Sequence record: OY720021
Length of the DNA stretch: 64,000 bases
Strand: one strand, 5' to 3'
Source of the DNA: Escherichia phage vB_Eco_Solly
Shown in pieces: positions 5,987 through 63,831 of this stretch; the first letter of the stretch is position 1, and each line of letters starts with the position of its first letter. The notes under the pieces are model-generated. The model saw only the letters and a program-made list of their open reading frames with translations, was not told the DNA's origin and did no database searches. A program made the translations under genes and the position numbers.

Positions 5987-7552
5987 ATGACTATCAAAAC
6001 TAAAGCTGAACTTTTGAACAAATGGAAGCCATTACTGGAAGGTGAAGGTTTACCGGAAATTGCTAATAGCAAACAAGCGATTATCGCTAAAATCTTTGAA
6101 AACCAGGAAAAAGATTTCCAGACAGCTCCGGAATATAAAGACGAAAAAATTGCTCAGGCATTTGGTTCTTTCTTAACAGAAGCTGAAATCGGCGGTGACC
6201 ATGGTTACAATGCTACTAACATCGCTGCAGGTCAGACTTCTGGCGCAGTAACCCAAATTGGGCCGGCAGTTATGGGTATGGTTCGTCGTGCTATTCCTAA
6301 TCTGATCGCTTTTGATATTTGTGGTGTTCAGCCTATGAACAGCCCGACCGGTCAGGTATTTGCTCTCCGTGCAGTATATGGTAAAGACCCTATCGCTGCT
6401 GGCGCTAAAGAAGCTTTCCATCCGATGTATGCTCCAGATGCGATGTTCTCTGGTCAGGGTGCTGCTAAGAAATTCCCAGCTCTGGCTGCTAGCACGCAAA
6501 CTACAGTAGGTGATATCTATACTCACTTCTTCCAGGACACTGGTACTGTGTATCTGCAAGCTTCTGCTCAAGTAACAATTAGTTCTACTGCAGATGATGC
6601 AGCTAAATTAGATGCTGAAATTAAGAAACAAATGGAAGCTGGTGTACTGGTAGAAATCGCAGAAGGTATGGCTACTTCTATCGCTGAACTTCAGGAAGGT
6701 TTCAACGGTTCTACCGATAACCCATGGAATGAAATGGGCTTCCGTATCGATAAACAAGTTATCGAAGCTAAATCTCGCCAGCTGAAAGCTGCTTACTCTA
6801 TCGAATTAGCACAAGACCTCCGCGCTGTTCACGGTATGGATGCTGATGCTGAACTGTCTGGTATTCTGGCTACCGAAATCATGCTGGAAATCAACCGTGA
6901 AGTTGTTGATTGGATTAACTACTCAGCTCAGGTTGGTAAATCTGGTATGACCCTGACTCCGGGTTCTAAAGCTGGTGTATTTGACTTCCAGGATCCGATT
7001 GATATTCGTGGTGCTCGCTGGGCGGGTGAATCCTTTAAAGCTCTGTTGTTCCAGATTGACAAAGAAGCAGTTGAAATTGCTCGTCAGACCGGTCGTGGTG
7101 AAGGTAACTTCATTATCGCTTCCCGTAACGTAGTTAACGTTCTGGCTTCAGTTGATACTGGCATTTCTTATGCTGCACAGGGTCTGGCTACCGGCTTTAA
7201 CACTGATACTACCAAGTCAGTATTTGCTGGTGTTCTGGGTGGTAAATACCGCGTATATATCGACCAGTATGCTAAACAGGATTATTTCACTGTAGGTTAT
7301 AAAGGTCCGAACGAAATGGATGCTGGTATTTACTATGCTCCATATGTAGCTCTGACTCCGCTGCGTGGTTCCGATCCGAAGAACTTCCAACCAGTAATGG
7401 GATTCAAAACTCGTTACGGTATCGGTATCAACCCATTTGCAGAATCCGCTGCTCAGGCTCCGGCTTCTCGCATTCAGAGTGGTATGCCTTCTATCCTGAA
7501 CAGCCTTGGTAAGAACGCTTACTTCCGCCGTGTATATGTTAAAGGTATCTAA
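5987..7552 (+). CDS. 23: major capsid protein gp23
   Basis: 521 aa; sequence recalled as essentially T4 gp23 (MTIKTKAELLNKWKPLLEGEG...). Confidence 0.98.
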   Translation: MTIKTKAELLNKWKPLLEGEGLPEIANSKQAIIAKIFENQEKDFQTAPEYKDEKIAQAFGSFLTEAEIGGDHGYNATNIAAGQTSGAVTQIGPAVMGMVRRAIPNLIAFDICGVQPMNSPTGQVFALRAVYGKDPIAAGAKEAFHPMYAPDAMFSGQGAAKKFPALAASTQTTVGDIYTHFFQDTGTVYLQASAQVTISSTADDAAKLDAEIKKQMEAGVLVEIAEGMATSIAELQEGFNGSTDNPWNEMGFRIDKQVIEAKSRQLKAAYSIELAQDLRAVHGMDADAELSGILATEIMLEINREVVDWINYSAQVGKSGMTLTPGSKAGVFDFQDPIDIRGARWAGESFKALLFQIDKEAVEIARQTGRGEGNFIIASRNVVNVLASVDTGISYAAQGLATGFNTDTTKSVFAGVLGGKYRVYIDQYAKQDYFTVGYKGPNEMDAGIYYAPYVALTPLRGSDPKNFQPVMGFKTRYGIGINPFAESAAQAPASRIQSGMPSILNSLGKNAYFRRVYVKGI

Positions 7553-7565
7553 TCTTTGACGATTT

Positions 7566-7585
7566 AAGGGACCTTCGGGTCCCTT
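7566..7585 (+). terminator. hairpin with UUCG tetraloop after gene 23
   Basis: AAGGGACC-TTCG-GGTCCCTT followed by T-rich tract. Confidence 0.7.
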
Positions 7586-7600
7586 TAGTTGTTTTTATGG

Positions 7601-7608
7601 TATAAATA
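7601..7608 (+). promoter_or_regulatory. late promoter box TATAAATA (gene 24)
   Basis: exact consensus 28 nt upstream of gene 24 ATG. Confidence 0.65.
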
Positions 7609-7635
7609 AATCATATAAACTGAAAGGAAAGCGCA

Positions 7636-8919
7636 ATGGCTAAAATCAACGAACTTCTGCGCGAATCAACCACAACGAATAGCAACTCAATCGGTCGCCC
7701 AAATCTCGTTGCTTTGACTCGCGCTACCACTAAATTAATATATTCTGACATTGTAGCAACGCAAAGAACTAATCAACCTGTTGCTGCTTTTTATGGTATC
7801 AAATACCTTAACCCAGACAATGAATTTACATTTAAAACTGGTGCTACTTACGCTGGCGAAGCTGGATATGTAGACCGAGAACAAATCACAGAATTAACAG
7901 AAGAGTCTAAATTAACTCTCAATAAAGGCGATTTATTCAAATATAATAATATCGTTTATAAAGTATTAGAAGATACTCCATTTGCTGATATTGAAGAAAG
8001 CGACTTAGAGTTAGCTCTTCAAATTGCAATCGTTCTTTTAAAGGTTCGTCTATTTTCTGACGCAGCGTCAACAAGCAAATTTGAAAGCTCTGATAGTGAA
8101 ATTGCGGATGCTAGATTCCAGATTAATAAATGGCAAACCGCAGTTAAATCTCGTAAACTTAAAACTGGTATCACAGTTGAATTAGCGCAAGATTTAGAAG
8201 CAAATGGATTCGATGCTCCTAATTTCTTAGAAGATTTGCTTGCAACTGAAATGGCAGATGAAATCAATAAAGATATTCTGCAGTCTTTGATTACAGTGTC
8301 AAAACGCTATAAAGTTACAGGAATTACTGATAGTGGATTCATCGATTTGAGTTATGCATCTGCACCTGAAGCGGGTCGTTCATTATATCGAATGGTATGT
8401 GAAATGGTTTCGCATATCCAAAAAGAATCAACTTATACAGCAACGTTCTGTGTTGCTTCTGCTCGTGCCGCTGCGATTCTTGCTGCTTCAGGTTGGTTAA
8501 AACATAAACCAGAAGATGACAAATATCTTTCACAAAATGCCTACGGGTTCTTAGCTAATGGTTTACCACTTTATTGCGATACTAACAGCCCATTAGATTA
8601 TGTAATCGTTGGCGTAGTAGAAAATATCGGTGAAAAAGAAATTGTTGGATCAATTTTCTATGCTCCGTATACAGAAGGTCTTGACTTAGATGACCCTGAA
8701 CATGTAGGTGCATTTAAAGTTGTGGTTGATCCAGAAAGCTTACAACCGTCTATCGGTTTATTAGTTAGATATGCTTTATCAGCAAATCCTTATACCGTAG
8801 CAAAAGATGAAAAAGAAGCAAGAATAATTGACGGTGGAGACATGGATAAAATGGCGGGTCGTTCAGATTTGTCTGTTTTATTAGGTGTTAAATTACCAAA
8901 AATTATTATTGATGAATAA
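7636..8919 (+). CDS. 24: head vertex protein gp24
   Basis: 427 aa; gp23 paralog; T4 gp24 length; late promoter box at 7601. Confidence 0.95.
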   Translation: MAKINELLRESTTTNSNSIGRPNLVALTRATTKLIYSDIVATQRTNQPVAAFYGIKYLNPDNEFTFKTGATYAGEAGYVDREQITELTEESKLTLNKGDLFKYNNIVYKVLEDTPFADIEESDLELALQIAIVLLKVRLFSDAASTSKFESSDSEIADARFQINKWQTAVKSRKLKTGITVELAQDLEANGFDAPNFLEDLLATEMADEINKDILQSLITVSKRYKVTGITDSGFIDLSYASAPEAGRSLYRMVCEMVSHIQKESTYTATFCVASARAAAILAASGWLKHKPEDDKYLSQNAYGFLANGLPLYCDTNSPLDYVIVGVVENIGEKEIVGSIFYAPYTEGLDLDDPEHVGAFKVVVDPESLQPSIGLLVRYALSANPYTVAKDEKEARIIDGGDMDKMAGRSDLSVLLGVKLPKIIIDE

Positions 8920-10532: not shown

Positions 10533-11951
10533 TTATGGATAGGTATAGATGATACCAGTTTCTAAAGCAGTTTTGTGAATGATGTATCCATTACGCGATT
10601 CTTGGACATCAACTTCTGGATAGTCTTTCATCATCTTCTGAAGAGTGTAACGATGCAGGTAGTATTTACTATCTGGATCTTCAGTTTTCCAATCTTTACC
10701 TTCTTCAGTCATTTTTTGGATTTCATCCATAACCCACCAACCGCACCAGATGTAAGCTGAGCTACGGTGTGGAAGAGGATGAACATAAGGTAATTCACCT
10801 TCTGGTTCTGGAGCAACTTTATCAGTTACCTGAACTTGACCTTCTGCCGTAATAGTTTTGCTATCATAATCAGCAGCAGTAACAGTTGCAGTAACTTCAA
10901 TAGTTTGACTTCCAATAGATGAGGTATCAACTGTATATACATTAGTTGACCCTTCTACAGGAGAAGAATCTTTCTTCCATGAATACTCAATTTGCGCTTC
11001 TTCTGGAGCATCAGTGACATTAGCAGTAAATGTAGCCGAAGCATCTTGCTGAACGTTAATAGAAGGAGGAGACAATGTAACCTGTGGATTCATTGTCTTC
11101 TTATTAACCGTTAATGATACTTCATTCGAAGTAACTTCCTTTTCATTGTAATTTTCAGCAGTTACTTGGGCTACGCATTTAATTCTTTTTACTCCACTTG
11201 TAGTTGGAGTATAGTTAAATGTAGAGTTAGTTTCTCCACCAACTTGTGAATCATCTACATACCACTGATACGTAGCAGATGCTCCATCAGGTTGAGAAGC
11301 TAAGGCAGCAGTAAATTGAACTGGGGTTCCGATTACTCCTGCTGGAGGACTATCAGGAGTTACTGCCAAGGTAGTTGTCTGCTCCTTTTTATTAACAGTC
11401 AGTGATACTTCATTAGAAGTAACGCTTAGTGCATCATAATCTGTCGCAGTTACTTGAGCCACACACTTAATTCTTTTTACCCCGCTTTCGGCAGGAGTGT
11501 AATTGAACGTAGCGTTAGTTGCTTCGCCCACAGGAGAATCATCTACATACCATTGATAAGTAGCGTTTGCGCCCGATGGCTGCGAAGCTAAAGCGGCAGT
11601 AAATTCAATAGCTGTTCCGATTACTCCAGCGTCAGGGCTATTAGGAGTTACAGCTAAGGTGGTCGTTTGTGTCTTATTTTGAACTGTGATAGTTGTAGTA
11701 GCTTCTGCTGTTTCAGCATCAGTATCTGGGACTGGGTTTGTTGCAACTACTTTAATAGTCTTTTGACCGGCAGGTCCTTTTAATACATAATTAAAAGTTG
11801 CTTCAGCTCCATCTTGTGGAACATCATCTACAGTCCAAGCATATGTAATAGGTCCATCTCCAGTTTGACCACTGGGTGTAGCAGTAAACTGCTGAGTCTG
11901 ATCTATAACTCCAGTAGGTGTTTTAGGAGTTATATCAACTGTAAAAGCCAT
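10533..11951 (-). CDS. hoc: Hoc outer capsid decoration protein with four Ig-like domains plus C-terminal capsid-binding domain
   Basis: 472 aa; conserved C-terminal capsid-binding segment (EGELPYVHPLPHRSSAYIWCGWW...); internal 96-aa tandem repeat (residues 95-190 and 191-286). Confidence 0.93.
   Translation of the reverse strand: MAFTVDITPKTPTGVIDQTQQFTATPSGQTGDGPITYAWTVDDVPQDGAEATFNYVLKGPAGQKTIKVVATNPVPDTDAETAEATTTITVQNKTQTTTLAVTPNSPDAGVIGTAIEFTAALASQPSGANATYQWYVDDSPVGEATNATFNYTPAESGVKRIKCVAQVTATDYDALSVTSNEVSLTVNKKEQTTTLAVTPDSPPAGVIGTPVQFTAALASQPDGASATYQWYVDDSQVGGETNSTFNYTPTTSGVKRIKCVAQVTAENYNEKEVTSNEVSLTVNKKTMNPQVTLSPPSINVQQDASATFTANVTDAPEEAQIEYSWKKDSSPVEGSTNVYTVDTSSIGSQTIEVTATVTAADYDSKTITAEGQVQVTDKVAPEPEGELPYVHPLPHRSSAYIWCGWWVMDEIQKMTEEGKDWKTEDPDSKYYLHRYTLQKMMKDYPEVDVQESRNGYIIHKTALETGIIYTYP
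11094..11669 (-). repeat. tandem direct duplication (2 x 288 bp) inside hoc encoding two near-identical Ig-like domains
   Basis: protein residues 95-190 and 191-286 align with few substitutions; DNA units visibly similar. Confidence 0.85.
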
Positions 11952-11960: not shown

Positions 11961-12641
11961 TTATTTTAATGTTACGAAAGAAGAATTGCGTGTTTCACGA
12001 ATTAAAACTGATCCGTCACGGTTAATGTAATAAATTAAGCTAAATAAAGTTTGGTGTGCTGACGCATGCTCAAAACTAGTTGGGTGAGATTTCCAATCAG
12101 GAGTTTCAGCAATCCATTGATAAATCCACCAAGGAACAGTGCAGAATCCTGGATTTTTTCCAATCAGCTGAAGATTCGGACTAAAGTTTTCCGGAAGAGT
12201 AAATACAGACGGCTTTTCAGATTCAATAATCTCAGCTACAGCCTGTTCAAACTTTTCTTCAACAAAGGGAGTATCTTCAATCAAAACTGAGGTATTTTCA
12301 GGAATTTTATCCGTTTCTACTACTTCAATTTTAATGTCAGATTTAACCGGAGAATCAATCAGAAGTGCTGCTTCTGGATTGACTTCTTCATCGTCATATT
12401 TTAATCCCTCTGCGGCATCAGCAGCATCAATTAAGTCTTTAATAGATAACCCATCAGTCTCTGGCATAGGTTCACTAGCGAGCTTCTGGAGGGCTTCTTC
12501 AATATCAACAACGATATTATCAAAAGATTTATTCTTTTTGACCTTTATACCAAACTGTTCAGCATATTCAGCTAATTTAGCTTTAGCTTCTTTATTATCA
12601 TCAAGAGCCTTCAGCTCTGCAATATAATCTTTATCTATCAT
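11961..12641 (-). CDS. inh: Inh, inhibitor of prohead protease gp21
   Basis: 226 aa as in T4; immediately downstream of hoc on the same strand. Confidence 0.85.
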   Translation of the reverse strand: MIDKDYIAELKALDDNKEAKAKLAEYAEQFGIKVKKNKSFDNIVVDIEEALQKLASEPMPETDGLSIKDLIDAADAAEGLKYDDEEVNPEAALLIDSPVKSDIKIEVVETDKIPENTSVLIEDTPFVEEKFEQAVAEIIESEKPSVFTLPENFSPNLQLIGKNPGFCTVPWWIYQWIAETPDWKSHPTSFEHASAHQTLFSLIYYINRDGSVLIRETRNSSFVTLK

Positions 12642-12654
12642 AATATTTCCTCAG

Positions 12655-12662
12655 TATAAATA
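12655..12662 (+). promoter_or_regulatory. late promoter box TATAAATA (uvsW)
   Basis: exact consensus 30 nt upstream of uvsW ATG. Confidence 0.6.
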
Positions 12663-12691
12663 TAGATATATTTATTACATGGTATTTAGAC

Positions 12692-14203
12692 ATGATTGAC
12701 ATTAAAGCACATTTTTATGATTTTAGTCACGTGAGAATTGACTGTGAAGAAAGTACATTTCATGAACTCCGTGATTTCTTTAGCTTTGAAGCTGATGGGT
12801 ATCGTTTTAATCCGAAATACAAATATGGCCACTGGGATGGACGAATCCGTCTTTTAGATTATAATCGTCTTCTTCCATTCGGCTTAGTCGGGCAAATTAA
12901 AAAGTTCTGTGATAACTTTGGCTATAAAGCCTGGATTGACCCGCAAATTAACGAAAAAGAAGAATTATCAAGAAAAGATTTTGATGAATGGCTTTCTAAA
13001 TTAGAAATCTATTCAGGAAATAAAAGAATTGAACCGCACTGGTATCAAAAAGATGCAGTGTTCGAAGGATTAGTTAATCGTCGTAGAATTCTTAATCTTC
13101 CAACATCCGCTGGTAAATCGTTAATTCAAGCTTTGCTTGCTCGGTATTATTTGGAAAATTATGAAGGTAAAATTCTTATCATTGTTCCAACAACTGCCTT
13201 AACAACTCAGATGGCTGATGACTTCGTCGACTATCGTCTATTCAGTCATGCAATGATAAAGAAAATTGGTGGCGGAGCATCAAAAGATGATAAATATAAA
13301 AATGATGCACCAGTCGTTGTTGGTACATGGCAAACTGTAGTTAAACAACCAAAAGAATGGTTCTCACAGTTTGGAATGATGATGAATGATGAATGCCATC
13401 TTGCTACAGGAAAAAGTATTTCATCTATCATATCAGGTTTAAATAACTGCATGTTCAAATTCGGTTTGTCTGGTTCATTACGTGATGGCAAAGCTAATAT
13501 CATGCAGTATGTTGGGATGTTTGGTGAAATATTTAAACCAGTAACGACTTCTAAATTAATGGAAGATGGACAAGTAACTGAGCTAAAAATTAATAGTATT
13601 TTTCTTCGCTATCCCGATGAGTTCACTACTAAATTAAAGGGAAAAACTTATCAAGAAGAAATAAAAATTATTACGGGGCTTAGTAAAAGAAATAAATGGA
13701 TCGCTAAATTAGCTATTAAGCTTGCGCAAAAAGATGAAAACGCTTTTGTCATGTTTAAACATGTATCACATGGTAAAGCTATTTTCGATTTAATTAAAAA
13801 TGAATACGATAAAGTTTATTACGTATCAGGGGAAGTTGATACCGAAACCCGCAATATAATGAAAACCTTAGCTGAAAATGGTAAAGGAATAATTATAGTA
13901 GCTAGTTATGGTGTATTTTCTACTGGTATTTCAGTTAAAAATCTGCATCACGTTGTTTTAGCGCACGGTGTTAAATCAAAAATCATTGTATTACAAACAA
14001 TCGGTCGTGTATTACGTAAGCATGGTTCTAAGACAATAGCAACCGTCTGGGACCTCATAGATGATTGTGGCGTTAAGCCAAAATCTGCTAATACGAAAAA
14101 GAAATATGTTCATTTGAACTATCTTTTAAAACACGGCATTGATCGTATTCAGCGCTATGCAGATGAAAAATTTAATTACGTAATGAAAACAGTTAATTTA
14201 TAA
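12692..14203 (+). CDS. uvsW: UvsW RNA-DNA and DNA-DNA helicase
   Basis: 503 aa; Walker A TSAGKS and DECH box; late promoter box upstream. Confidence 0.95.
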   Translation: MIDIKAHFYDFSHVRIDCEESTFHELRDFFSFEADGYRFNPKYKYGHWDGRIRLLDYNRLLPFGLVGQIKKFCDNFGYKAWIDPQINEKEELSRKDFDEWLSKLEIYSGNKRIEPHWYQKDAVFEGLVNRRRILNLPTSAGKSLIQALLARYYLENYEGKILIIVPTTALTTQMADDFVDYRLFSHAMIKKIGGGASKDDKYKNDAPVVVGTWQTVVKQPKEWFSQFGMMMNDECHLATGKSISSIISGLNNCMFKFGLSGSLRDGKANIMQYVGMFGEIFKPVTTSKLMEDGQVTELKINSIFLRYPDEFTTKLKGKTYQEEIKIITGLSKRNKWIAKLAIKLAQKDENAFVMFKHVSHGKAIFDLIKNEYDKVYYVSGEVDTETRNIMKTLAENGKGIIIVASYGVFSTGISVKNLHHVVLAHGVKSKIIVLQTIGRVLRKHGSKTIATVWDLIDDCGVKPKSANTKKKYVHLNYLLKHGIDRIQRYADEKFNYVMKTVNL

Positions 14204-23079: not shown

Positions 23080-23109
23080 ACTATAACACAACATGAGGGA
23101 CTTGTAAAC
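23080..23109 (-). promoter_or_regulatory. early sigma70 promoter (GTTTAC -35, TATAGT -10) within a duplicated 53-bp module
   Basis: minus-strand GTTTAC...18 nt...TATAGT, then GAGG SD and ATG of the 96-aa ORF. Confidence 0.6.
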
Positions 23110-25166
23110 TACATTTTGAACTTTTTAGACATTCCGTTGATGTTAACCAAAGAAGCTAAGATTTGAGAAACTTCGTTTTCCTCTTCTTTTGATTCTTCTA
23201 CAAGGAATTGATTAAATCCAGTCATTGGACGAACTTCACCAGTTTCCATCAAATGATCGCCATCATATACTGATTCCTCTAATTGTTCAGAAGGAGGAAC
23301 GATTGTACCTTCGATTAGATACTTGTTATAAGCAGTTTCTTTCATAAAGTAAGTACTTACTTTATTAATCTTCAGTAAAATTCCACGTGGTAGAATAACT
23401 TCAGCTTCTGATGGAAATCCTGATAAATGACCTGGAACGATAACTTTGATTCGCTCAGCTCCTTTAATTACCATACCCACGCTAGTTTCAGCATCTTCAT
23501 TAGCATATGTAGAATGACTACCCATATGCATCAAATCTTCTGCATCAATGGAACCTTCTCCTTCACCAGAAAATACTGCGCCAGAATCATCTAGAGCCAT
23601 ATAGTTTTTACCATGCTCACCGAAGATATTTGGTTTAAGCGATGTGGATACGAAGTTCTTGAAATAGAACATTTTATTTTCAATGTTATGACGCAAAGTT
23701 TTAAAGGTAACTTCTTGCCCACGATAAAGAGTAGTTCCTGGAGGAAGAACTGAACCTTTAGCAAATGCAGAATCCAACGTCTCGATGTGTTTAATAGCTC
23801 GTTCCATATATTCTTCACGGGTAGAATCAGGTTTACCTAAAAGGAACGAGTTCATTTCAACATATGAATCTGCACAATAATCTTCAATTACATCAGACTC
23901 AGCCTGAGTTAATCCTTTTGGAGTTACTTCAGTGCTTGCGTATTCATATGCCTGAGCGGCAGATTCATTAATCAATTTATAAATGCCATTCATGACAAAT
24001 TGAATAATAGCTGTCTTTTCATCTGGTGTAGCTTTAGAACCTTTAACTAAATCATTGATAATTTTCTTAATAACATCAAAGCTATTAGAAATATTAATGT
24101 CAGCAAGATCGCTTAAAATTTTATCAGTTTTATAATCAAAGAATTCTTTATTCTTTAAATATTCTTGAGAACCTTGATATGTTATATCGCTCTGCAACTT
24201 GATAGATGGATCACGTAAACGTGCATGGGCTAATGCAATATGATTTCGGAAACTTTCTAGTTCATAATCGTTAGATTTAAAACGAGAAGCACTTCTCATA
24301 CCACCGATAGCTCCTTTGCTAAAGTTTGAACCAATCTGAATAACGCCAGAGTTCATCGGACCTTCTGCTTTATATACCGGAACTTTAGATTCAAACTCTT
24401 GATATTTCTTAGCAGCGAAGCTATCACCCTGAAGTGAAGCATCAACAGTAGAATATTGAGCTTGTGCTGCTAATCGACGACTAATTTTAGTTTTCTGAAT
24501 AACAGCTTGATCCGTGCGCTTATCATTTTCTAAAGCAATAGAAGCAGCAACAGCGACAGCTTTAGGAACAGCATTACCTGTTTTAACGTCTACATAAACA
24601 TCACCAACCTTTGATTCAACTTTTGTGAATAACTCAGTTGAAATAGGAGGTACACCTGGAATGTCTTCTAAATTGGCATTTTTACGGTAAACCATAATAT
24701 ATGCATATTTCTTATCATAGTCCCAGATTTCCTTTAAAAGAACATATCGACCTGCTCCTTTAGTACGTACTAAACGGTCAGCAATAACTTGCATTTGACG
24801 AGCTGCGCCATTTGTTTTACTTTTTAGTACGCGGAATAGGCATGCGTCGATTTTATACTGTTTCATTGTTTGAAGAGCAGTATCAAAAACAGCATTAATG
24901 ACGCCAATTGGATTTCCACCCAAGTTTCTAAGCTTGACTAACGATAATTTCTCATTAACACCTATCATTACGATATGCATCATTTTGTCGCCTGGCTTAA
25001 CGTTTTTATTCGTATCACCGCCAGAGGTGTATGTACAAAATCTAAATCCAGGAAGCACGCTTTCTTCACCGGCTTGAATAGCAAAAATTTGTGGTATTTT
25101 ATGCTTAGGATTTAAGTTAACAACCGGCGCCGAAGCGCCGTCAAATAATTCTGTAATAAGTTCCAT
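23109..25166 (-). CDS. Alt-like ADP-ribosyltransferase paralog (685 aa)
   Basis: N-terminus MELITELFD... shared with the neighbouring Alt; R-S-E type motifs YRGQ, STS, EAEVILPRG in C-terminal domain. Confidence 0.85.
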   Translation of the reverse strand: MELITELFDGASAPVVNLNPKHKIPQIFAIQAGEESVLPGFRFCTYTSGGDTNKNVKPGDKMMHIVMIGVNEKLSLVKLRNLGGNPIGVINAVFDTALQTMKQYKIDACLFRVLKSKTNGAARQMQVIADRLVRTKGAGRYVLLKEIWDYDKKYAYIMVYRKNANLEDIPGVPPISTELFTKVESKVGDVYVDVKTGNAVPKAVAVAASIALENDKRTDQAVIQKTKISRRLAAQAQYSTVDASLQGDSFAAKKYQEFESKVPVYKAEGPMNSGVIQIGSNFSKGAIGGMRSASRFKSNDYELESFRNHIALAHARLRDPSIKLQSDITYQGSQEYLKNKEFFDYKTDKILSDLADINISNSFDVIKKIINDLVKGSKATPDEKTAIIQFVMNGIYKLINESAAQAYEYASTEVTPKGLTQAESDVIEDYCADSYVEMNSFLLGKPDSTREEYMERAIKHIETLDSAFAKGSVLPPGTTLYRGQEVTFKTLRHNIENKMFYFKNFVSTSLKPNIFGEHGKNYMALDDSGAVFSGEGEGSIDAEDLMHMGSHSTYANEDAETSVGMVIKGAERIKVIVPGHLSGFPSEAEVILPRGILLKINKVSTYFMKETAYNKYLIEGTIVPPSEQLEESVYDGDHLMETGEVRPMTGFNQFLVEESKEEENEVSQILASLVNINGMSKKFKM

Positions 25167-25169
25167 GAT

Positions 25170-27266
25170 TTATCCTTGAACGAACTTGTAAGGCATGTTT
25201 GTAATATCTATGCAAGACGCAATAATTCCAAGAGATGATTCTACTTTCTGTTTAACGTTTGATGAAACAAATGATGCAAAGTCAACTCTGTCTTCTATTT
25301 CAATATCACCTGTCATTGCAACCAATTCACCAGTTTCCATTAAATGGTCTCCGTCATAGATTACCGATTCAGTGAGCTCTTCCGTGGTCATAACTTCAGC
25401 TTGAATGAGTTTTGTATTATTAGATGTTGTTCCGTCATTATTAGAAGCATCAGTTATTTTATTAACTTTGACCATCAATCCACGTGGTAGAATAACTTCA
25501 GCTTCTGTTGCTATTCCGAGACTTCCTGGATATACAACATTAACTTTATGAGCTCCATCAATTGCCCATCCTATTTGAACTTTAACGTATTCAGGATTTT
25601 CTTTATACGCTCTTATTTCGTTTGGATTAATAGTTATTCCTTCTTCATTTTTATCAACTGTTAATTCGTTGCGAGCTTCTGGTTCTAAAAGACCAATACC
25701 AGCGTGTGTAATTCCAAAACGTCCAAAAATGATAGGAGTTAAAGAAGTAGATACAAAATTTCTAAAATAGAACACTTTATTTTTAACTAACGCTTCATAT
25801 ATAGGAGCAGTCATACTTTGAGCACGATAAACTGTAATGCCTTCTGGTATACGGTCACCATTTTCAAAAGCTGAATCTAAGTTATTTATAGCAGATTCAA
25901 TTTCTTTTTCACTCATTACATCATATCGTTCTGGATTGTAACGACCTAAAAGAAGATTATTGATGTCAGTATATCCTGAACCGCAATATTCTCTAATGCC
26001 ACGCTTTTGTGATGGAGTATATTTAGAACCATCGCGGGCAATAGTAATATCAATCATTGGACCAGCACCAATTCCAGAAAAACTGTAAATCATTCGTTTG
26101 AGGAATTTAGTTTTTGCTGCGTTCCAGGAATTTTTAGTTATTTCTTCCCAGACTTCATCTGGTTGTCCTTTACGATTTTTATTATGATTAGCAAGCCATT
26201 TATCTTTATAATCTTCAAAGAATTGATTTACAGCTGCTGCGTATTTCTCTAAACATTTTATTGAAGTAGTTGGTTCATTTTTAATTGCATTAAAAATTAC
26301 TTCTTTAATTTTTTCTGAAACTTCACCGACTTGACTCATTGGAAAGAATTTATAATCATAGTGAAGTTCATCTGCCGTTCCTTCAGCAATAATTTTTGCT
26401 GCCTTTGTTTTAGAAGCTAATGAATTAATTCCAATTTTCATTTCTTCTGCTTCGGGAATTAAAGGTGCAGTAGCTGGTTTATTAAAATTAGCTGCTGTAG
26501 ATTCATACTTCTGGAATAATTCACTTTCAAATCTAGAAGATTCCAATGACTGACTTTGTGCAATTGCTCTACGGGAAATTTTAACTTTAACGATTACGGC
26601 TTGGTCAGAACGTTTATCATTTTCTTGTGCAATTGATGCTGCAATTGCCTCATTTTTAGTTACTTGGGCTCCAGTATCTTTATTGATATAAACATCACCG
26701 ACTTTCGATTCAACTTTAGTAAAGAGCTCGGTACTAATTTCCGGAACTCCTGGAATGTCTTCTAGTGATACATTTTTGCGATGTATAAGAATATATGCAT
26801 ACTTTTTATCGTAATCCCAGAGTTCCTTAAGAAGGACGTATCTACCACCTGAACGACTACGGATAAGTCTATCAGCAATAACTTGAATTTGTCGAGCTTG
26901 ACCGGCGGTTTTAGACTTAAGAATACGAAGCATACAAGCATCAATTTTATATTGACGCATTGTTTGCATTGCAACAGTAAAAACTGAATTGATATAATTA
27001 ATTGGGCTTGGACCAAGACCTTTTAATTTAGCAATTGAACCTTTAGCAGTTAATGTAAAAGGAACAATATGCATCATTTTATCGCCCATCTTTAAATCGC
27101 GATTAGTATCACCTCCAGATGTATAGGTACATAAACGAAAGCCTGGTTGTTCAATTGCATCATCAACATGAACTGAAAAAATTTGTGGTATTTTCTTCTT
27201 TGGATTTAAGTTTGTAATCGGAAGAGTAGTATCTTCGTCAAATAATTCTGTAATGAGTTCCATCAT
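25170..27266 (-). CDS. alt: Alt ADP-ribosyltransferase (698 aa), virion-packaged type
   Basis: R-S-E motifs YRAQ, FVSTSL, EAEVILPRG; TATAAATA late box on minus strand at 27287-27294; adjacent to ligase gene as in T4. Confidence 0.85.
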   Translation of the reverse strand: MMELITELFDEDTTLPITNLNPKKKIPQIFSVHVDDAIEQPGFRLCTYTSGGDTNRDLKMGDKMMHIVPFTLTAKGSIAKLKGLGPSPINYINSVFTVAMQTMRQYKIDACMLRILKSKTAGQARQIQVIADRLIRSRSGGRYVLLKELWDYDKKYAYILIHRKNVSLEDIPGVPEISTELFTKVESKVGDVYINKDTGAQVTKNEAIAASIAQENDKRSDQAVIVKVKISRRAIAQSQSLESSRFESELFQKYESTAANFNKPATAPLIPEAEEMKIGINSLASKTKAAKIIAEGTADELHYDYKFFPMSQVGEVSEKIKEVIFNAIKNEPTTSIKCLEKYAAAVNQFFEDYKDKWLANHNKNRKGQPDEVWEEITKNSWNAAKTKFLKRMIYSFSGIGAGPMIDITIARDGSKYTPSQKRGIREYCGSGYTDINNLLLGRYNPERYDVMSEKEIESAINNLDSAFENGDRIPEGITVYRAQSMTAPIYEALVKNKVFYFRNFVSTSLTPIIFGRFGITHAGIGLLEPEARNELTVDKNEEGITINPNEIRAYKENPEYVKVQIGWAIDGAHKVNVVYPGSLGIATEAEVILPRGLMVKVNKITDASNNDGTTSNNTKLIQAEVMTTEELTESVIYDGDHLMETGELVAMTGDIEIEDRVDFASFVSSNVKQKVESSLGIIASCIDITNMPYKFVQG

Positions 27267-35609: not shown

Positions 35610-37024
<1,415 letters not shown>

Positions 37025-41250: not shown

Positions 41251-41301
41251 AAATTTTCCACTTAGTTAATAGATAGTGACTCGTCCATGAGTCAAATTAT
41301 A

Positions 41302-45002: not shown

Positions 45003-45350
45003 TCAATACGGTTTAGCATCAAATTTTCTCTCAATTTCAGGCGTGAAATATAATTCTTTACCGCGTTTGGAAAAGCGACCAATAATATGATAATTATTCT
45101 CATCAAACGTGATATTACCAATATCCATAGCTTTCAACCAAATATCGATATTTCTATCCAACTTTATGTCAAAATTCCAATACGGAGAACTATTACCGAA
45201 AATACTGCAAGCGGATTCAGTAAAACAACTACTATAAATCTTATCTTTAGGAACTACTAATTGATAGACACCTTTAATAAACTGAGGACCCTGCCATTTT
45301 GGTTGTTTCGTGTCTTTTTCTAATAGAATAGGGTAATAATTAAAATTCAT
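45003..45350 (-). CDS. hypothetical protein, 115 aa, lying between frd and td
   Basis: Intact ORF co-oriented with the frd-td operon; no motif recognised. Confidence 0.6.
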   Translation of the reverse strand: MNFNYYPILLEKDTKQPKWQGPQFIKGVYQLVVPKDKIYSSCFTESACSIFGNSSPYWNFDIKLDRNIDIWLKAMDIGNITFDENNYHIIGRFSKRGKELYFTPEIERKFDAKPY

Positions 45351-45369: not shown

Positions 45370-46196
<827 letters not shown>

Positions 46197-47286: not shown

Positions 47287-48195
47287 TTAAAGGTCATTCA
47301 AAAGGTCATCCAGGTCCGTGTCATCAGCACTAGATGAACTGCCAGAGCTTGAGCTCATAAAATCATCTTCAGTTTTTGTTTTGAAGTCATCAACATTGAA
47401 TGCATCCAAATCATCAGCAACTTTATCAGCTTTCTTAGCGGCAGTTGCTGCGGCACCACCCATAGCAGCAGTTCCCATAACTTGACTGAACTTAGTGCTC
47501 AGTTCTTCAAATGATTTGAATTTATCTTTAGAAGTCATTTCAGAAAGGTCAACCATTTGTTCGAACAGTTCTTTCTGGAAAGATTCATCGTCAATGTTTG
47601 GAATCGCAGATTGATTCAGGAATTTAGATTCGTCGTAGTTACTAAATCCAGAAACTTGTTTAACTTTTAGTACAAAGTTAGCACCTTCCCACGGACAAGT
47701 TACATCAACCGGAGTTTCACCCATTTCAACATCAACCGCAATCATTGCATTGATTTTATCCCAGATTTTCTTACCGAAACGGTATTTAAATACTTTACCT
47801 TCATTTTCTGGAGCAGCTGGGTCTTTTACTACAAGAATGTTAGCCCAGTAAGAAGTTTTACGTTTAACAAGACTGTACTCTTTATTGTCAGTGTTGTACA
47901 GATCATTTTTACTAATGTATTGACATACTGGGCAAGAATCGTAATCACCGTGGGTAGATGAACAATTTTCGATATACCATTTACCATTTTTCTTGAAACC
48001 GTGATTTACAAGAATTGCGAATGGTGCTTGTTCATCATTTTTAGACGGAAGAAAACGAATTACTGCTTGACCGTTACCCGCATTGTCGAGTTTCAGTTTC
48101 CACTCGCCTTTATCTTCAGAAGAAAAACCACCTTTATTTCCAGCCAGTTTAGCCATTTGCGCAGCGAGTTCAGCAGTAGATTTACGTTTAAACAT
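47287..48195 (-). CDS. 32: gp32 single-stranded DNA-binding protein
   Basis: 302 aa; zinc-binding Cys/His cluster; acidic Ser/Asp C-terminus; strong terminator downstream. Confidence 0.97.
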
Positions 48196-48294
48196 TTTTA
48201 TTTCCTTTTTAATTTAATTAACAGTTGGTGCTATGACGATGTATGACCTCATAGCTGGTCAGTGAGATAATTATAATCTATTTATAATAAGCAA

Positions 48295-48948
48295 TTAATA
48301 CTTGCAAGATTTCACAGTTTCAATGAAAACATTTTTAGCTTTCTGCGAATCAATATTTAAAATTTTTCTATAAGCCTTTAACTTTATAGAATAATTATTC
48401 CAGACTAAATTATCAGTCTGTTCATCATGTTTATCAATTATATTTAAAAATGAATCAAGCAAGATAAACGTCTCAAACGAAATTATATTCGATTGAAGTA
48501 GTTTAAAAATATAGCTTGATTGAACCTTTGGATTATACTCAAAGATTTCTTTAAAAGCAGAAACTTCAACTTTTTTACTAAAATAATAAATGTTGCGAAT
48601 ATCTTCTTCAAACTTAAATTTAATTTGTTTTAAGCGTCCGATATATTCACGATAAAACACAAGTGCATCAGCGTCAGAGATGTCACCAATCCAAGCATCT
48701 TGGTTAGCAACCAAATTACTTATAAAGATTAAAGCAAGTTCCTTTAATTTATATTTTTCTGATAACTTCTGGAAAAAATACTTATCCCTTCGCTTTTGAT
48801 AAGCGGCATCAGACACCCGCATGCACCAATTATACTTAATTACATCATACTTTCCATTCATGTGTTGTTTTATCATTAAGTATAATTTATAAACTGATTT
48901 ACCATCAATGTATCTTTCACCACCAGCAGGCATGCGGAGTTTAATCAT
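48295..48948 (-). CDS. 59: gp59 helicase loader
   Basis: 217 aa, T4 gp59 length. Confidence 0.93.
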   Translation of the reverse strand: MIKLRMPAGGERYIDGKSVYKLYLMIKQHMNGKYDVIKYNWCMRVSDAAYQKRRDKYFFQKLSEKYKLKELALIFISNLVANQDAWIGDISDADALVFYREYIGRLKQIKFKFEEDIRNIYYFSKKVEVSAFKEIFEYNPKVQSSYIFKLLQSNIISFETFILLDSFLNIIDKHDEQTDNLVWNNYSIKLKAYRKILNIDSQKAKNVFIETVKSCKY

Positions 48949-50526: not shown

Positions 50527-50560
50527 CTTATTATTGAAAACACAATAGGAGCCCGGGAGA

Positions 50561-53500
50561 ATGGCCGAGATTAAAAGAAAGTTCAGAGCAGAAGACGGTC
50601 TGGACGCAGGTGGCGATAAAATAATCAACGTAGCTTTAGCTGATCGTACCGTAGGAACTGACGGTGTTAACGTTGATTACTTAATTCAAGAAAACACAGT
50701 TCAACAATACGATCCAACTCGTGGATATTTAAAAGATTTTGTAATCATTTATGATAACCGCTTTTGGGCTGCTATAAATGATATTCCAAAACCAGCAGGA
50801 GCTTTTAATAGCGGACGCTGGAGAGCATTACGTACCGATGCTAACTGGATTACGGTTTCATCTGGTTCATATCAATTAAAATCCGGTGAAGCTATTTCGG
50901 TTAACACTGCAGCTGGAAATGACATCACGTTTACTTTACCATCTACTCCAATTGATGGTGATACTATCGTTCTCCAAGATATTGGAGGAAAACCTGGAGT
51001 TAACCAAGTTTTAATTGTAGCTCCAGTGCAAAGTATTGTAAACTTTAGAGGTGAACAAGTACGTTCAGTACTAATGACTCATCCAAAGTCACAGCTAGTT
51101 TTAATTTTTAGTAATCGTCTGTGGCAAATGTATGTAGCTGATTATAGTAGAGAAGCTGTAGTTGTAACACCAGCGAATACTTATCAAGCGCAATCTAATG
51201 ATTTTATCGTACGTAGATTTACTTCTGCTGCACCAATTAATGTCAAACTTCCAAGATTTGCTAATCATGGCGATATTATTAATTTCGTCGATTTAGATAA
51301 ACTAAATCCACTTTATCATACAATTGTTACTACATACGATGAAACGACTTCAGTACAAGAAGTTGGAACTCATTCCATTGAAGGCCGTACATCGATTGAC
51401 GGTTTCTTGATGTTTGATGATAATGAGAAATTGTGGAGATTGTTTGACGGGGATAGTAAAGCACGTTTACGCATTATAACGACTAATTCTAATATTCGTC
51501 CAAACGAAGAAGTTATGGTATTTGGTGCGAATAACGGAACAACTCAAACAATTGAGCTTCAGCTTCCTACTGATATCTCTGTTGGTGATACTGTTAAAAT
51601 TTCCATGAATTACATGAGAAAAGGACAAACAGTTAAAATCAAAGCTGCCGGTGAAGATAAAATTGCTTCTTCAGTTCAATTGCTGCAATTCCCAAAACGT
51701 TCAGAATATCCGCCTGAAACTAAATGGGTAACTGTTCAAGAATTAGTTTTTAACGGTGAAACTAATTATGTTCCAGTTTTACAGCTTGCTTATATAGAAG
51801 ATTCTGATGGAAAATACTGGGTTGTACAGCAAAACGTTCCAACTGTAGAAAGAGTAGATTCTTTAAATGATTCTACTAGAGCAAGATTAGGCGTAATTGC
51901 TTTAGCTACACAGGCTCAAGCTAACGTCGATTTAGAAAATTCTCCACAAAAAGAATTAGCAATTACTCCAGAAACATTAGCTAACCGTACTGCTACAGAA
52001 ACTCGTAGAGGTATCGCAAGAATAGCAACTACTGCTCAAGTGAATCAGAACACCACATTCTCTTTTGCAGATGACCTTATCATTACTCCTAAAAAGCTGA
52101 ATGAAAGAACTGCTACAGAAACTCGCAGAGGTGTTGCAGAAATTGCTACTCAGCAAGAAACAAACGCAGGAACAGATGATACAACCATCATTACTCCTAA
52201 AAAGCTTCAAGCTCGTCAAGGTTCTGAATCATTATCCGGTATTGTAACTTTTGTATCTACCGCGGGAGCTACTCCAGCTTCTAGTCGTGAATTAAATGGT
52301 ACAAACGTTTATAATAAAAACACTAATAATTTAGTTGTTTCGCCTAAAGCTCTAGATCAGTATAAAGCTACTCCAACGCAACAAGGTGCAGTAATTTTAG
52401 CAGTTGAAAGTGAAGTAATTGCTGGTCAAAGTCAAGAAGGATGGGCAAATGCTGTTGTAACGCCAGAAACGTTACACAAAAAGACATCAACTGATGGAAG
52501 AATTGGTTTAATTGAAATTGCTACGCAAAGTGAAGTTAATACAGGAACTGATTATACTCGTGCAGTCACTCCTAAAACTTTAAATGACCGTAGAGCAACT
52601 GAAAGTTTAAGTGGTATAGCTGAAATTGCTACGCAAGTTGAATTCGACGCAGGCGTCGACGATACTCGTATCTCTACACCATTAAAAATTAAAACCAGAT
52701 TTAATAGTACTGATCGTACTTCTGTTGTTGCTCTATCTGGATTAGTTGAATCAGGAACTCTCTGGGACCATTATACCCTTAATATTCTTGAAGCAAATGA
52801 GACACAGCGTGGTACACTTCGTGTAGCTACACAGGTTGAAGCTGCTGCAGGAACATTAGATAATGTTTTAATAACTCCTAAAAAGCTTTTAGGTACTAAA
52901 TCTACCGAATCGCAGGAAGGTGTTATTAAAGTTGCAACTCAGTCTGAAACTGTGACTGGAACGTCAGCAAATACTGCTGTATCTCCAAAAAATTTAAAAT
53001 GGATTGTGCAGAGTGAACCTACCTGGGCAGCTACTACTGCGGTAAGAGGTTTTGTTAAAACTTCATCTGGTTCAATTACGTTCGTTGGTAATGATACAGT
53101 CGGTTCTACCCAAGATTTAGAACTGTATGAGAAAAATAGCTATGCAATATCACCATATGAATTAAACCGTGTATTAGCAAATTATTTGCCATTAAAAGCA
53201 AAAGCTGCTGATACAAATTTATTGGATGGTCTAGATTCATCTCAATTCATTCGTAGGGATATTGCACAGACGGTTAATGGTTCACTAACCTTAACCCAAC
53301 AAACGAATCTGAGTGCCCCTCTTGTATCATCTAGTACTGCTACGTTTGGTGGATCAGTTTCGGCAAATAGTACATTAACTATTTCTAATACTGGAACGGC
53401 AACTCGTCTGATTTTTGAGAAAGGACCTCAAACTGGAACTAACCCAGCGCAGACGATGACTATCAGAGTTTGGGGAAATCAGTTTGGTGGTGGATCAGAT

Positions 53501-54430
53501 ACAACACGTTCTACTGTATTTGAAGTTGGTGATGAAACATCTAATCACTTTTATTCTCAACGTAATAAAGCTGGTAATATTACGTTTAGCATTAATGGTA
53601 CTGTGATGCCAATAAATGTTAACGCTTCCGGTTCATTGAATGCGAATGGCGTTGCAACATTTGGTAGTTCAGTTACTGCTAATGGTGAATTCATCAGCAA
53701 GTCTGCAAATGCTTTCAGAGCAATAAACGGTGATTATGGATTCTTTATTCGCAACGATGCTGCTAACACCTATTTCATGCTTACTGCATCGGGTGATCAG
53801 ACTGGCGGATTTAATGGATTACGTCCTTTAGCTATTAACAATCAGTCCGGTCAAGTAACGATTGGTGAAAGCTTAATCATTGCCAAAGGTGCTACTATAA
53901 ATTCAGGTGGTTTAACTGTTAACTCGAGAATTCGTTCTCAGGGTACTAAAACCGCTGATTTATACACCCGTGCACCGACATCTGATACTGTAGGATTCTG
54001 GTCAATCGATATTAATGATTCAGCTACTTATAACCAATTCCCGGGTTATTTTAAAATGGTTGAAAAAACTAATGAAGTGACTGGACTTCCATACTTAGAA
54101 CGTGGCGAAGAAGTTAAATCTCCTGGTACATTGACTCAGTTTGGTAACACACTTGATTCGCTTTACCAAGATTGGATTACTTATCCAACGACTCCAGAAG
54201 CACGTACCACTCGCTGGACACGTACATGGCAGAAAACCAAAAATTCTTGGTCGAGTTTTGTTCAGGTATTTGATGGAGGTAACCCTCCTCAGCCGTCTGA
54301 TATCGGTGCTTTGCCATCTGATAATGCTACAATGGGGAATCTTACTATTCGTGATTTCTTACGAATTGGTAATGTTCGCATTATTCCTGACCCAGTGAAT
54401 AAATCTGTTAAATTTGAATGGATTGAATAA
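50561..54430 (+). CDS. 34: long tail fiber proximal subunit gp34
   Basis: 1289 aa; repeated beta-motifs (ITPKKL...RTATETRRGVAEIAT); late promoter box at 50519. Confidence 0.97.
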   Translation: MAEIKRKFRAEDGLDAGGDKIINVALADRTVGTDGVNVDYLIQENTVQQYDPTRGYLKDFVIIYDNRFWAAINDIPKPAGAFNSGRWRALRTDANWITVSSGSYQLKSGEAISVNTAAGNDITFTLPSTPIDGDTIVLQDIGGKPGVNQVLIVAPVQSIVNFRGEQVRSVLMTHPKSQLVLIFSNRLWQMYVADYSREAVVVTPANTYQAQSNDFIVRRFTSAAPINVKLPRFANHGDIINFVDLDKLNPLYHTIVTTYDETTSVQEVGTHSIEGRTSIDGFLMFDDNEKLWRLFDGDSKARLRIITTNSNIRPNEEVMVFGANNGTTQTIELQLPTDISVGDTVKISMNYMRKGQTVKIKAAGEDKIASSVQLLQFPKRSEYPPETKWVTVQELVFNGETNYVPVLQLAYIEDSDGKYWVVQQNVPTVERVDSLNDSTRARLGVIALATQAQANVDLENSPQKELAITPETLANRTATETRRGIARIATTAQVNQNTTFSFADDLIITPKKLNERTATETRRGVAEIATQQETNAGTDDTTIITPKKLQARQGSESLSGIVTFVSTAGATPASSRELNGTNVYNKNTNNLVVSPKALDQYKATPTQQGAVILAVESEVIAGQSQEGWANAVVTPETLHKKTSTDGRIGLIEIATQSEVNTGTDYTRAVTPKTLNDRRATESLSGIAEIATQVEFDAGVDDTRISTPLKIKTRFNSTDRTSVVALSGLVESGTLWDHYTLNILEANETQRGTLRVATQVEAAAGTLDNVLITPKKLLGTKSTESQEGVIKVATQSETVTGTSANTAVSPKNLKWIVQSEPTWAATTAVRGFVKTSSGSITFVGNDTVGSTQDLELYEKNSYAISPYELNRVLANYLPLKAKAADTNLLDGLDSSQFIRRDIAQTVNGSLTLTQQTNLSAPLVSSSTATFGGSVSANSTLTISNTGTATRLIFEKGPQTGTNPAQTMTIRVWGNQFGGGSDTTRSTVFEVGDETSNHFYSQRNKAGNITFSINGTVMPINVNASGSLNANGVATFGSSVTANGEFISKSANAFRAINGDYGFFIRNDAANTYFMLTASGDQTGGFNGLRPLAINNQSGQVTIGESLIIAKGATINSGGLTVNSRIRSQGTKTADLYTRAPTSDTVGFWSIDINDSATYNQFPGYFKMVEKTNEVTGLPYLERGEEVKSPGTLTQFGNTLDSLYQDWITYPTTPEARTTRWTRTWQKTKNSWSSFVQVFDGGNPPQPSDIGALPSDNATMGNLTIRDFLRIGNVRIIPDPVNKSVKFEWIE

Positions 54431-54438
54431 GAGGTATT

Positions 54439-55554
54439 ATGGAAAAATTTATGGCAGAGTTTGGACAAGGATATGTCCAAACGCCATTTTTATCGGAAAG
54501 TAATTCAGTAAGATACAAAATAAGTATAGCGGGTTCTTGCCCGCTTTCTACTGCAGGACCATACGTTAAATTTCAAGATAATCCTGTTGGAAGTCAAACA
54601 TTTAGCGCAGGTCTTCATCTAAGAGTTTTTGACCCTTCTACAGGAGCATTAGTTGATAGTAAGTCATATGCTTTTTCGACTTCAAATGATACTACATCAG
54701 CTGCTTTTGTTAGTTTCATGAATTCTTTGACGAATAATCGAATTGTTGCTATATTAACTAACGGAAAGGTTAATTTTCCTCCTGAAGTAGTATCTTGGTT
54801 AAGAACCTCCGGAACGTCTGCTTTTCCATCTGACTCTATATTGTCGAGATTTGATGTATCATATGCTGCTTTTTATACTTCTTCTAAAAGAGCTATCGCA
54901 TTAGAACATGTTAAATTAAGTAACAGAAAAAGCACAGATGATTATCAAACTGTATTAGATGTAGTATTTGATAGTTTAGAAGATGTTGGAGCGACAGGAT
55001 TTCCTAAAAGAACATACGAAAGCGTTGAGCAATTTATGTCAGCTGTTGGTGGAACTAATAACGAAATTGCGCGTTTACCGACTTCATCAGCGATAAGTAA
55101 ACTATCTGACTACAATTTAATTCCTGGCGATGTTCTTTATCTTAAAGCACAACTATATGCTGATGCCGATTTACTTGCGCTTGGAACTACAAATATATCT
55201 ATCCGTTTTTATAATGCATCGAATGGATATATTTCCTCGACACAAGCTGAGTTTACTGGGCAAGCTGGGTCATGGGAATTAAAGGAAGATTATGTAGTTG
55301 TTCCAGAAAATGCAGTTGGATTTACGATATATGCACAAAGAACTGCTAAAGCTGGCCAAGGTGGCATGAGAAATTTAAGCTTTTCTGAAGTATCAAGAAA
55401 CGGCGGAATTTCAAAACCTGCTGAATTTGGCGTCAATGGTATTCGAGTTAATTATGTCTGTGAATCTGCTTCACCTCCGGATATAATGGTACTTCCTACA
55501 CAAGCATCGTCTAAAACTGGTAAAGTGTTTGGGCAAGAATTTAGAGAAGTATAA
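54439..55554 (+). CDS. 35: long tail fiber hinge protein gp35
   Basis: 371 aa; synteny 34-35-36-37. Confidence 0.93.
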   Translation: MEKFMAEFGQGYVQTPFLSESNSVRYKISIAGSCPLSTAGPYVKFQDNPVGSQTFSAGLHLRVFDPSTGALVDSKSYAFSTSNDTTSAAFVSFMNSLTNNRIVAILTNGKVNFPPEVVSWLRTSGTSAFPSDSILSRFDVSYAAFYTSSKRAIALEHVKLSNRKSTDDYQTVLDVVFDSLEDVGATGFPKRTYESVEQFMSAVGGTNNEIARLPTSSAISKLSDYNLIPGDVLYLKAQLYADADLLALGTTNISIRFYNASNGYISSTQAEFTGQAGSWELKEDYVVVPENAVGFTIYAQRTAKAGQGGMRNLSFSEVSRNGGISKPAEFGVNGIRVNYVCESASPPDIMVLPTQASSKTGKVFGQEFREV

Positions 55555-55559
55555 ATTGA

Positions 55560-55577
55560 GGGAGCCTTCGGGTTCCC
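55560..55577 (+). terminator. hairpin terminator after gene 35
   Basis: GGGAGCC-TTCG-GGTTCCC followed by TTTTTC. Confidence 0.7.
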
Positions 55578-55585
55578 TTTTTCTT

Positions 55586-55593
55586 TATAAATA
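55586..55593 (+). promoter_or_regulatory. late promoter box TATAAATA (genes 36/37)
   Basis: exact consensus 24 nt upstream of gene 36 ATG. Confidence 0.65.
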
Positions 55594-55616
55594 CTATTAA
55601 AATAAAGGGGCATACA

Positions 55617-56279: not shown

Positions 56280-56287
56280 GAGGACTT

Positions 56288-60235: not shown

Positions 60236-60236
60236 A

Positions 60237-60254
60237 AGAGGGCTTCGGCCCTCT
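60237..60254 (+). promoter_or_regulatory. stem-loop with UUCG tetraloop between genes 37 and 38
   Basis: AGAGGGC-TTCG-GCCCTCT then ATTTTT. Confidence 0.6.
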
Positions 60255-60265
60255 AAGGATTTTTA

Positions 60266-61051: not shown

Positions 61052-61083
61052 TTTTTGAATAAATATCCTTAAAAGGAGGGTCT

Positions 61084-62013: not shown

Positions 62014-62025
62014 TAACTATACCAC

Positions 62026-62178
62026 TCAATTAGTTGACTTTGTTATAATATCATCAGACGCTTGATTTGTAAACTGGTCTGTGTTATTTTCTTCAAAAAT
62101 TTTTTCTACGAATTCCTTGAACGACTTACGTTCCTGAGCTACATTATGCTCGATTACTTTTTCAAGATTATGACTCAT
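62026..62178 (-). CDS. small hypothetical protein, 50 aa
   Basis: ATG overlaps arn stop in ATGA arrangement; acidic small ORF. Confidence 0.4.
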   Translation of the reverse strand: MSHNLEKVIEHNVAQERKSFKEFVEKIFEENNTDQFTNQASDDIITKSTN

Positions 62179-63822: not shown

Positions 63823-63831
63823 TATTTATTC

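Follow-up and report, generated by a model that had tools for sequence, protein, structure and literature searches.

The gene 23/24, inh/uvsW and gene 59/32 junctions of Escherichia phage vB_Eco_Solly are, with high probability, compact T2-type alleles that have not been invaded by seg genes and that hold only the regulatory signals of their flanking genes. The analysis covered a 64,000-nt stretch of sequence record OY720021, hereafter called the window. Measured from the ORF ends, the three spacers are exactly 83, 50 and 99 bp long, as the original prediction of short junctions (50-100 bp) had it, whereas the corresponding T4 intervals are 812, 669 (inh stop to uvsW start) and 689 bp; the adjacency of the flanking genes in the window is the empty allele. 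It had also been stated that T4 carries segD, segE and segG at the 23-24, inh-uvsW and 32-59 junctions, and all three genes are found there in the annotation of AF158101.6 and in Table 1 of PMC2988022 (Edgell, Gibb and Belfort 2010), which disposes of the possibility that T4 itself lacks seg genes at these places.

The window has the gene order of the Tequatrovirus late and replication block (18-24, hoc, inh, uvsW ... nrdB, nrdA, td, frd, 32, 59, 33). According to the ORF list, the genes bordering the three junctions are gp23 (5987-7552, plus strand) and gp24 (7636-8919, plus), inh (11961-12641, minus) and uvsW (12692-14203, plus), and gp32 (47287-48195, minus) and gp59 (48295-48948, minus). 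The blastn identity to T4 in colinear blocks is 84-98%, and the identity to T2 is 94.7-97%, with only 94.7% over a stretch of 14.7 kb. No record matched 25 kb of the window at 99% or better, and the best relatives vary by region. The window is a mosaic stretch of a Tequatrovirus (T-even) genome, and this mosaicism leaves the reading of the junctions unchanged.

Several further features of the window were recorded alongside the junctions. Two full-length tandem alt paralogues (685 and 698 aa) occupy 23109-27266, where T4 has one alt and the short remnants alt.-1 and alt.-2. Hoc (10533-11951) has 472 aa against 376 aa in T4, and the blastn overlap points to an additional repeat of about 300 nt, which is probably one further Ig-like domain. 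In the region 56288-61051, gp37 has 1315 aa and gp38 261 aa, compared with 1026 and 183 aa for their T4 counterparts, and these lengths suggest an adhesin module of the T2/T6 type. A 106-aa ORF (36704-37024) between pseT and pseT.1 has neither a T4 counterpart nor a Pfam match, and T2 has an 82-aa ORF at that place. Two small ORFs, one of 115 aa in the td-frd gap (45003-45350) and one of 81 aa after frd (45951-46196), are absent from T4 and occur at the same places in T2; no Pfam domain was detected in either.

Six homing elements are annotated in the corresponding span of T4 (AF158101.6): segD (106561-107232, minus strand) between genes 23 and 24, segE (112057-112674) between inh and uvsW, segG (147909-148541) between genes 32 and 59, I-TevIII in the nrdB intron, mobE together with nrdB.1 between nrdA and nrdB, and I-TevI in the td intron. 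The empty sites were defined by aligning the window to T4, as the original prediction had proposed, using blastn breakpoints against T4 positions 100000-150800 together with pairwise alignments; window positions 50552-64000, which include the long tail fibre gene 34 sequence as well as gp37 and gp38, lay outside this T4 alignment. The breakpoints fall at window 7563/7624 and T4 106521/107311 for segD, at 12678/12692 and 112044/112674 for segE, at 48258/48294 and 147918/148542 for segG, at 40574/40577 and 138457/139058 for the nrdB intron, at 41250/41306 and 139719/140420 for mobE with nrdB.1, and at 44405/44410 and 143543/144565 for the td intron. The breakpoints agree with the borders of the cassettes in T4. 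A tblastn search of the 64-kb window with SegD, SegE, SegG, I-TevI, I-TevIII and MobE revealed no homologue (best E = 0.32), and Pfam showed no nuclease domain in the scanned ORFs, including those without a T4 counterpart. The window has none of the six T4 homing elements of this span. T4 has itself been called an oddity for the number of its endonucleases, and the targets tabulated in the same review are uvsW for SegE, gene 32 for SegG and "unknown" for SegD (PMC2988022).

The spacer between genes 23 and 24 (7553-7635, 83 bp) is the segD-less allele of an interval that in T4 harbours segD on the minus strand. An intrinsic terminator was found by terminator scan downstream of gene 23 (7566-7585, plus strand), consisting of a G+C-rich hairpin with a tetraloop (core GGGACC-UUCG-GGUCCC) and a T-rich tail; its fold energy is -20.3 kcal/mol (z = -4.46), which none of 200 shuffled sequences equalled. 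Downstream of the terminator, a pattern search located the T4-type late promoter box TATAAATA at 7601-7608 (plus), 27 nt upstream of the gene 24 ATG. This pattern has 18 matches in the window against 8.9 expected. In T4 the TATAAATA box of gene 24 also lies 27 nt from the ATG, within a diverged leader. Comparison of five segD+ with five segD- phages showed that the columns linked to segD run from 3 nt past the gene 23 stop to 3 nt before the gene 24 ATG, and in this sample no linkage was found in the coding sequence. The terminator stem reads GGGACC/GGTCCC in the segD- and GGGAACC/GGTTCCC in the segD+ haplotype, the leader with the late promoter differs as well, and the window has the seg-less state at all the linked columns. 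The segD+ and segD- spacers behave in these data as two whole-spacer alleles with no linked flanking tract. That donors have no flanking sequence of their own here agrees with the title of Sokolov et al. (2018), according to which SegD does not drive the homing of its own gene.

The divergent spacer between inh and uvsW (12642-12691, 50 bp), delimited by the ORF ends and the T4 alignment, is the segE-less allele and is identical to that of T2. Homology to T4 extends up to 12678, and the 13 nt at 12679-12691 stand in place of the 629 nt of T4 that contain segE. The pattern search revealed a late promoter box TATAAATA at 12655-12662 (plus), 29 nt upstream of the uvsW ATG; in T4 an identical uvsW-side box precedes segE, with an upstream flank 100% identical to that of the window. 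Direct reading of the opposite strand gave AATAAATA at 12669-12676 (minus), which matches the late promoter box at seven of eight positions and faces inh, upstream of which a late promoter has been mentioned (PMC2988022). A candidate hairpin in this spacer was discarded, being an A/T palindrome made up of the two divergent boxes, with fold z values of 0.17 and 0.00 that are not significant.

The flank of this junction holds a clear signature of the segE state. Among five segE+ phages (T4, RB3, RB14, SH-2 and ECO4) and six segE- sequences (the window, T2 and four IMG/VR loci), 35 columns are perfectly linked to segE, every one within nt 1-139 of uvsW (window 12692-12830, plus), and the window is seg-less at all 35. 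This 5′ block in the segE+ phages is about 26% diverged from the segE-less haplotype. T4 and the window differ here at 36 of 138 nt, as against 7 of 309 downstream; 21 of the differing codons are synonymous and six non-synonymous. On this linkage, the mobile segE haplotype comprises segE together with the diverged 5′ end of uvsW. The gene that bears the linked block is the one listed as the SegE target (PMC2988022), and the SegE site has been placed in the hoc.1-uvsW region of RB30 and RB52 by the paper on SegB (PMC2330249). The recipients tested for SegE were RB30 and RB52, not T2, and homing of segE was demonstrated into RB30 in a T4 x RB30 cross.

The intercistronic spacer between genes 59 and 32 (48196-48294, 99 bp by ORF ends) is the segG-less allele and again identical to that of T2. 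A late promoter box TATAAATA facing gene 32 was found by pattern search at 48279-48286 (minus), 8 nt after the gp59 stop. A weak pattern match at 48270-48293 (minus), with a TGCTT Mot-box core, a spacer and TATAAT, is regarded as a candidate middle promoter only, because the loose pattern used (TGCTT, N12-15, TANNNT) is barely enriched in the window (30 found, 20.4 expected). In T4, the middle and late promoters of gene 32 sit inside segG (PMC2988022), which implies that in the segG-less window they must lie within the 99-bp spacer.

The remainder of this spacer is taken up by the leader of gene 32. Covariation analysis delineated an H-type pseudoknot of the T2 type at 48230-48261 (minus; UGACC-A-GCUAUGA-GGUCA-UACAUCG-UCAUAGC), with both stems conserved and located upstream of the ribosome binding site. 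Across eight T4-like sequences, all 88 of 88 cells are paired and compensatory changes occur in six of 11 pairs, in support of both stems, whereas slid controls gave at most 51% paired cells and no compensatory change. A Rfam scan of the whole window at gathering thresholds gave no match, the pseudoknot included. Between the pseudoknot and the AUG lies an unstructured A/U-rich segment (UUAAUUAAAUUAAAAA; 48196-48229, minus) with the Shine-Dalgarno sequence AGGA, in which the UUAAA/UAAA repeats can be read directly (UUAAUUAAAUUAAAAAGGAAAUAAAAAUG). T4 has one additional AATTA unit in its operator. Repeats of this kind have been described for the gp32 translational operator (PMC535899), to which the pseudoknot and the UUAAA region are assigned here by sequence, and repression by gp32 is predicted. 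In T4, segG overlaps the 5′ end of the pseudoknot (PMC535899), and the T4 homology breakpoint at 48258 falls within the 5′ strand of stem 1, matching that report.

Linkage to segG was assessed in six segG+ and seven segG- phages. The pseudoknot columns alone are perfectly linked, the window being seg-less at 16 of 16, and no polymorphism perfectly linked to segG was found in the gene 32 coding sequence of these 13 phages. A 3-nt deletion together with changes at gene 32 codons 18-22, which had looked segG-linked in a comparison of three with four phages, was rejected when SH-2, JK38 and a51 proved to be segG+ without it. Codon 77 of gene 32 (window numbering) is linked in 12 of the 13 phages, encoding Asn (AAT/AAC) in the seg-less and Thr (ACA) in the segG+ phages; the window has AAT, as in T2. 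The cut made by SegG probably lies some hundreds of bp inside gene 32.

The original prediction described the three spacers as holding just hairpins and promoter boxes. This description fits the 23/24 spacer, which holds the terminator of gene 23 and the late promoter of gene 24. It has to be amended for the other two: the inh/uvsW spacer has no significant hairpin and holds two divergent late-promoter boxes, and the 59/32 spacer combines the gene 32 promoters with the gp32 translational operator, a pseudoknot. In T4 and a minority of its relatives, a free-standing GIY-YIG cassette (segD, segE or segG) occupies these same points.

The intron and mobE sites are empty as well. [quoted passage not shown] The 51-bp spacer between nrdA and nrdB (41251-41301), identified by blastn as the empty site of T4 mobE and nrdB.1, adds a site that the original prediction had not listed. 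The nicks made by MobE were mapped in the 5′ region of T2 nrdB, and MobE homing into T2 has been reported (PMC2790892). Over the stretch from about nt 50 to nt 150 of nrdB, some 35 positions distinguish T4 from the window. The I-TevI homing site of the window differs from that of T4 at 11 of 39 positions, compared with six of 39 for T2, with CAAAG preserving the CNNNG cleavage motif. Mosaicism extends to td itself, where strong divergence from both T4 and T2 affects about nt 170-600 and the final ~160 nt, indels occur near the 3′ end, and the initial ~170 nt stay close to both phages.

The distribution of the seg genes among relatives was surveyed in a collection of 50,697 phage records, in which each junction is spanned by about 500 Tequatrovirus records with at least 90-95% identity. 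The carriers number 55 for segD (~11%), 159 for segE (~31%) and 142 for segG (~28%) of these ~500 records. The identity of the inh/uvsW query is bimodal, with 345 records at 95% or above and 155 at 90-95%, and the second group matches the segE+ count. Among the more distant T4-like loci of IMG/VR, genes 59 and 32 are separated by 13-122 nt in 24 of 26, the two exceptions being segG+ Tequatrovirus contigs; inh and uvsW lie 49-64 nt apart in 28 of 31 (the value of one locus, L095, was recomputed from the match position), and the other three have SegE homologues with 48-63% amino acid identity; and genes 23 and 24 have 82-106 nt between them in 13 of 14, the exception having a SegD homologue (57%) in the same orientation as in T4. 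Compact junctions are the common arrangement and probably the ancestral one, since they predominate in the Tequatrovirus records and in the distant T4-like loci alike. The seg-less junctions are the majority state of Tequatrovirus and no special property of this genome.

The exceptional loci show each junction to be a recurrent home of one seg family. The SegD-like gene (57% amino acid identity) lies on a distant T4-like contig (L131, 1049-1714, minus) at exactly the junction used in T4, and SegE-like genes (48-63%) occupy the T4 junction in L093 (713-1495, plus), L094 (974-1501, plus) and L097 (1091-1501, plus), with the copies in L094 and L097 looking N-terminally truncated. In phage PP01 (L140, 750-1226), the annotated segD has 477 nt compared with 672 nt in T4, the element being 99.1% identical, and is probably an inactivated copy.

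Three other histories could account for empty junctions. The ancestor might have carried segD, segE and segG and lost each by precise deletion, and degenerate seg genes do occur in relatives, as with the short segD of PP01 and the truncated SegE-like ORFs of L094 and L097; the argument that selection opposes the deletion of seg genes on account of the promoters inside them likewise implies that deletions are conceivable (PMC2988022). Such deletions would, however, leave the seg-linked variants of the flanks behind. The linkage analyses drew on individual GenBank records, because IMG/VR has only about four Tequatrovirus contigs per locus, and at all three seg sites the flanks of the window have the endonuclease-less haplotype. 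The lack of any donor-linked variant makes precise deletion of former seg genes unlikely, and the spacers are also within 0-2 mismatches of T2 and of lengths typical of distant genera; secondary loss is regarded as extremely improbable. Alternatively, the lineage may once have had one or more seg genes and then regained empty alleles and their flanks by recombination with a seg-less phage. This is in keeping with the strong mosaicism of the window, with no 25-kb match at 99% or better and best relatives that differ by region, but homing biases transmission towards gain rather than loss (PMC2330249, PMC2790892). We consider such replacement very unlikely, while noting that it makes the same present-day prediction as alleles that were never invaded, and sequence cannot separate the two. 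The statement that the junctions were never invaded holds for these alleles and not necessarily for the whole lineage, because the genome is mosaic and its best matches vary by region.

A third possibility concerns the present rather than the past of the sites, namely that escape from cleavage through mutation of the targets in the flanking genes would have made the genome immune rather than a recipient. The 11 differences from T4 in the td homing site, against six for T2, speak for it, as do gene 32 codons ~77-95, which mix T2-like and T4-like single-nucleotide states. On the other hand, the window matches T2 exactly or almost exactly at the 5′ ends of uvsW and nrdB and in the gene 32 leader, I-TevI tolerates many substitutions (PMC2988022), and the CNNNG motif is kept. 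General resistance is judged quite unlikely. There is a small chance that the intron-less td allele in particular is resistant to cleavage and, relatedly, that segD has spread by ordinary recombination rather than by homing; were the td site resistant, "empty" would not mean "invadable" for this genome.

The original prediction also called the window a recipient-type genome for several T4 homing elements. Structurally this holds: the window is seg-less at the positions linked to segE and segG, and over the six T4 endonuclease sites it is colinear with T2, the phage that classically served as recipient in crosses with T4. It is qualified in that recipient status for segD is doubtful and that the empty state is the ordinary one of the majority. 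The strongest case would be mobE, where the window equals T2 across the region nicked by MobE. For segG, the leader of gene 32 is identical to that of T2, into which homing of segG was shown in T4 x T2 crosses (PMC2330249), and recipient status is suggested by this likeness; for segE it is suggested by the seg-less haplotype at the 5′ end of uvsW, which is nearly identical to that of T2. The td site is empty, and its sensitivity to I-TevI is uncertain given the 11 of 39 differences.

Biased inheritance of the donor allele has been observed in crosses of T4 with T2 for segG and mobE and of T4 with RB30 for segE (PMC2330249, PMC2790892). By analogy, the window genome would act as the recipient when sharing a host cell with a phage that is segE+, segG+ or mobE+: SegE would cleave uvsW at its 5′ end, SegG would cleave gene 32, and MobE would do so at the 5′ end of nrdB, after which repair templated by the donor would copy in the endonuclease gene along with flanking donor markers. 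No such homing transfer would be expected for segD.

The import of these results beyond annotation is little. They provide a clean annotation of three regulatory spacers, record a phage that lacks all six T4 homing elements of the 64-kb span, and outline the reach of the donor haplotype beside each cassette, which is nil at segD, 139 nt into uvsW at segE, and confined to the pseudoknot at segG. That seg, mob and intron endonucleases are patchily distributed in T-even phages, and that empty alleles of the T2 kind act as recipients in marker exclusion, has been textbook knowledge since the 1990s-2000s. Seg-less junctions of the T2 type have already been described, and nothing found here departs from the published biology of T-even phages.

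Compared with the known systems, the junctions of the window share with the free-standing GIY-YIG cassettes segD, segE and segG of T4 the same flanking genes and insertion points, with flanks 92-98% identical to T4, and they differ in lacking the cassettes, the T4 variant of uvsW nt 1-139, the T4-type pseudoknot, and the T4-type gene 23 terminator and gene 24 leader. The gene 32 operators of T2, T6, T4 and RB69 (PMC535899) have the same two-stem H-type pseudoknot, UUAAA repeats and ribosome binding site as the window; with respect to T4, stem 1 of the window is one pair longer and loop 2 two nt longer (7 vs 5 nt), while no difference from the T2 operator was found. The closest resemblance is to T2 (AP018813), in which the gaps at the four junctions are likewise 83, 50, 99 and 51 bp, and td and nrdB are uninterrupted. 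At each of the six T4 endonuclease sites, the alignment of the window with T2 runs through in one colinear block, with no mismatch in the inh/uvsW and 59/32 spacers, two mismatches in the 23/24 spacer, and 100% identity over the nrdA/nrdB spacer and approximately the first 365 nt of nrdB, and the two share the same extra ORFs between td and frd and after frd. The td coding sequence of the window is much more diverged, and the window is not T2 itself.
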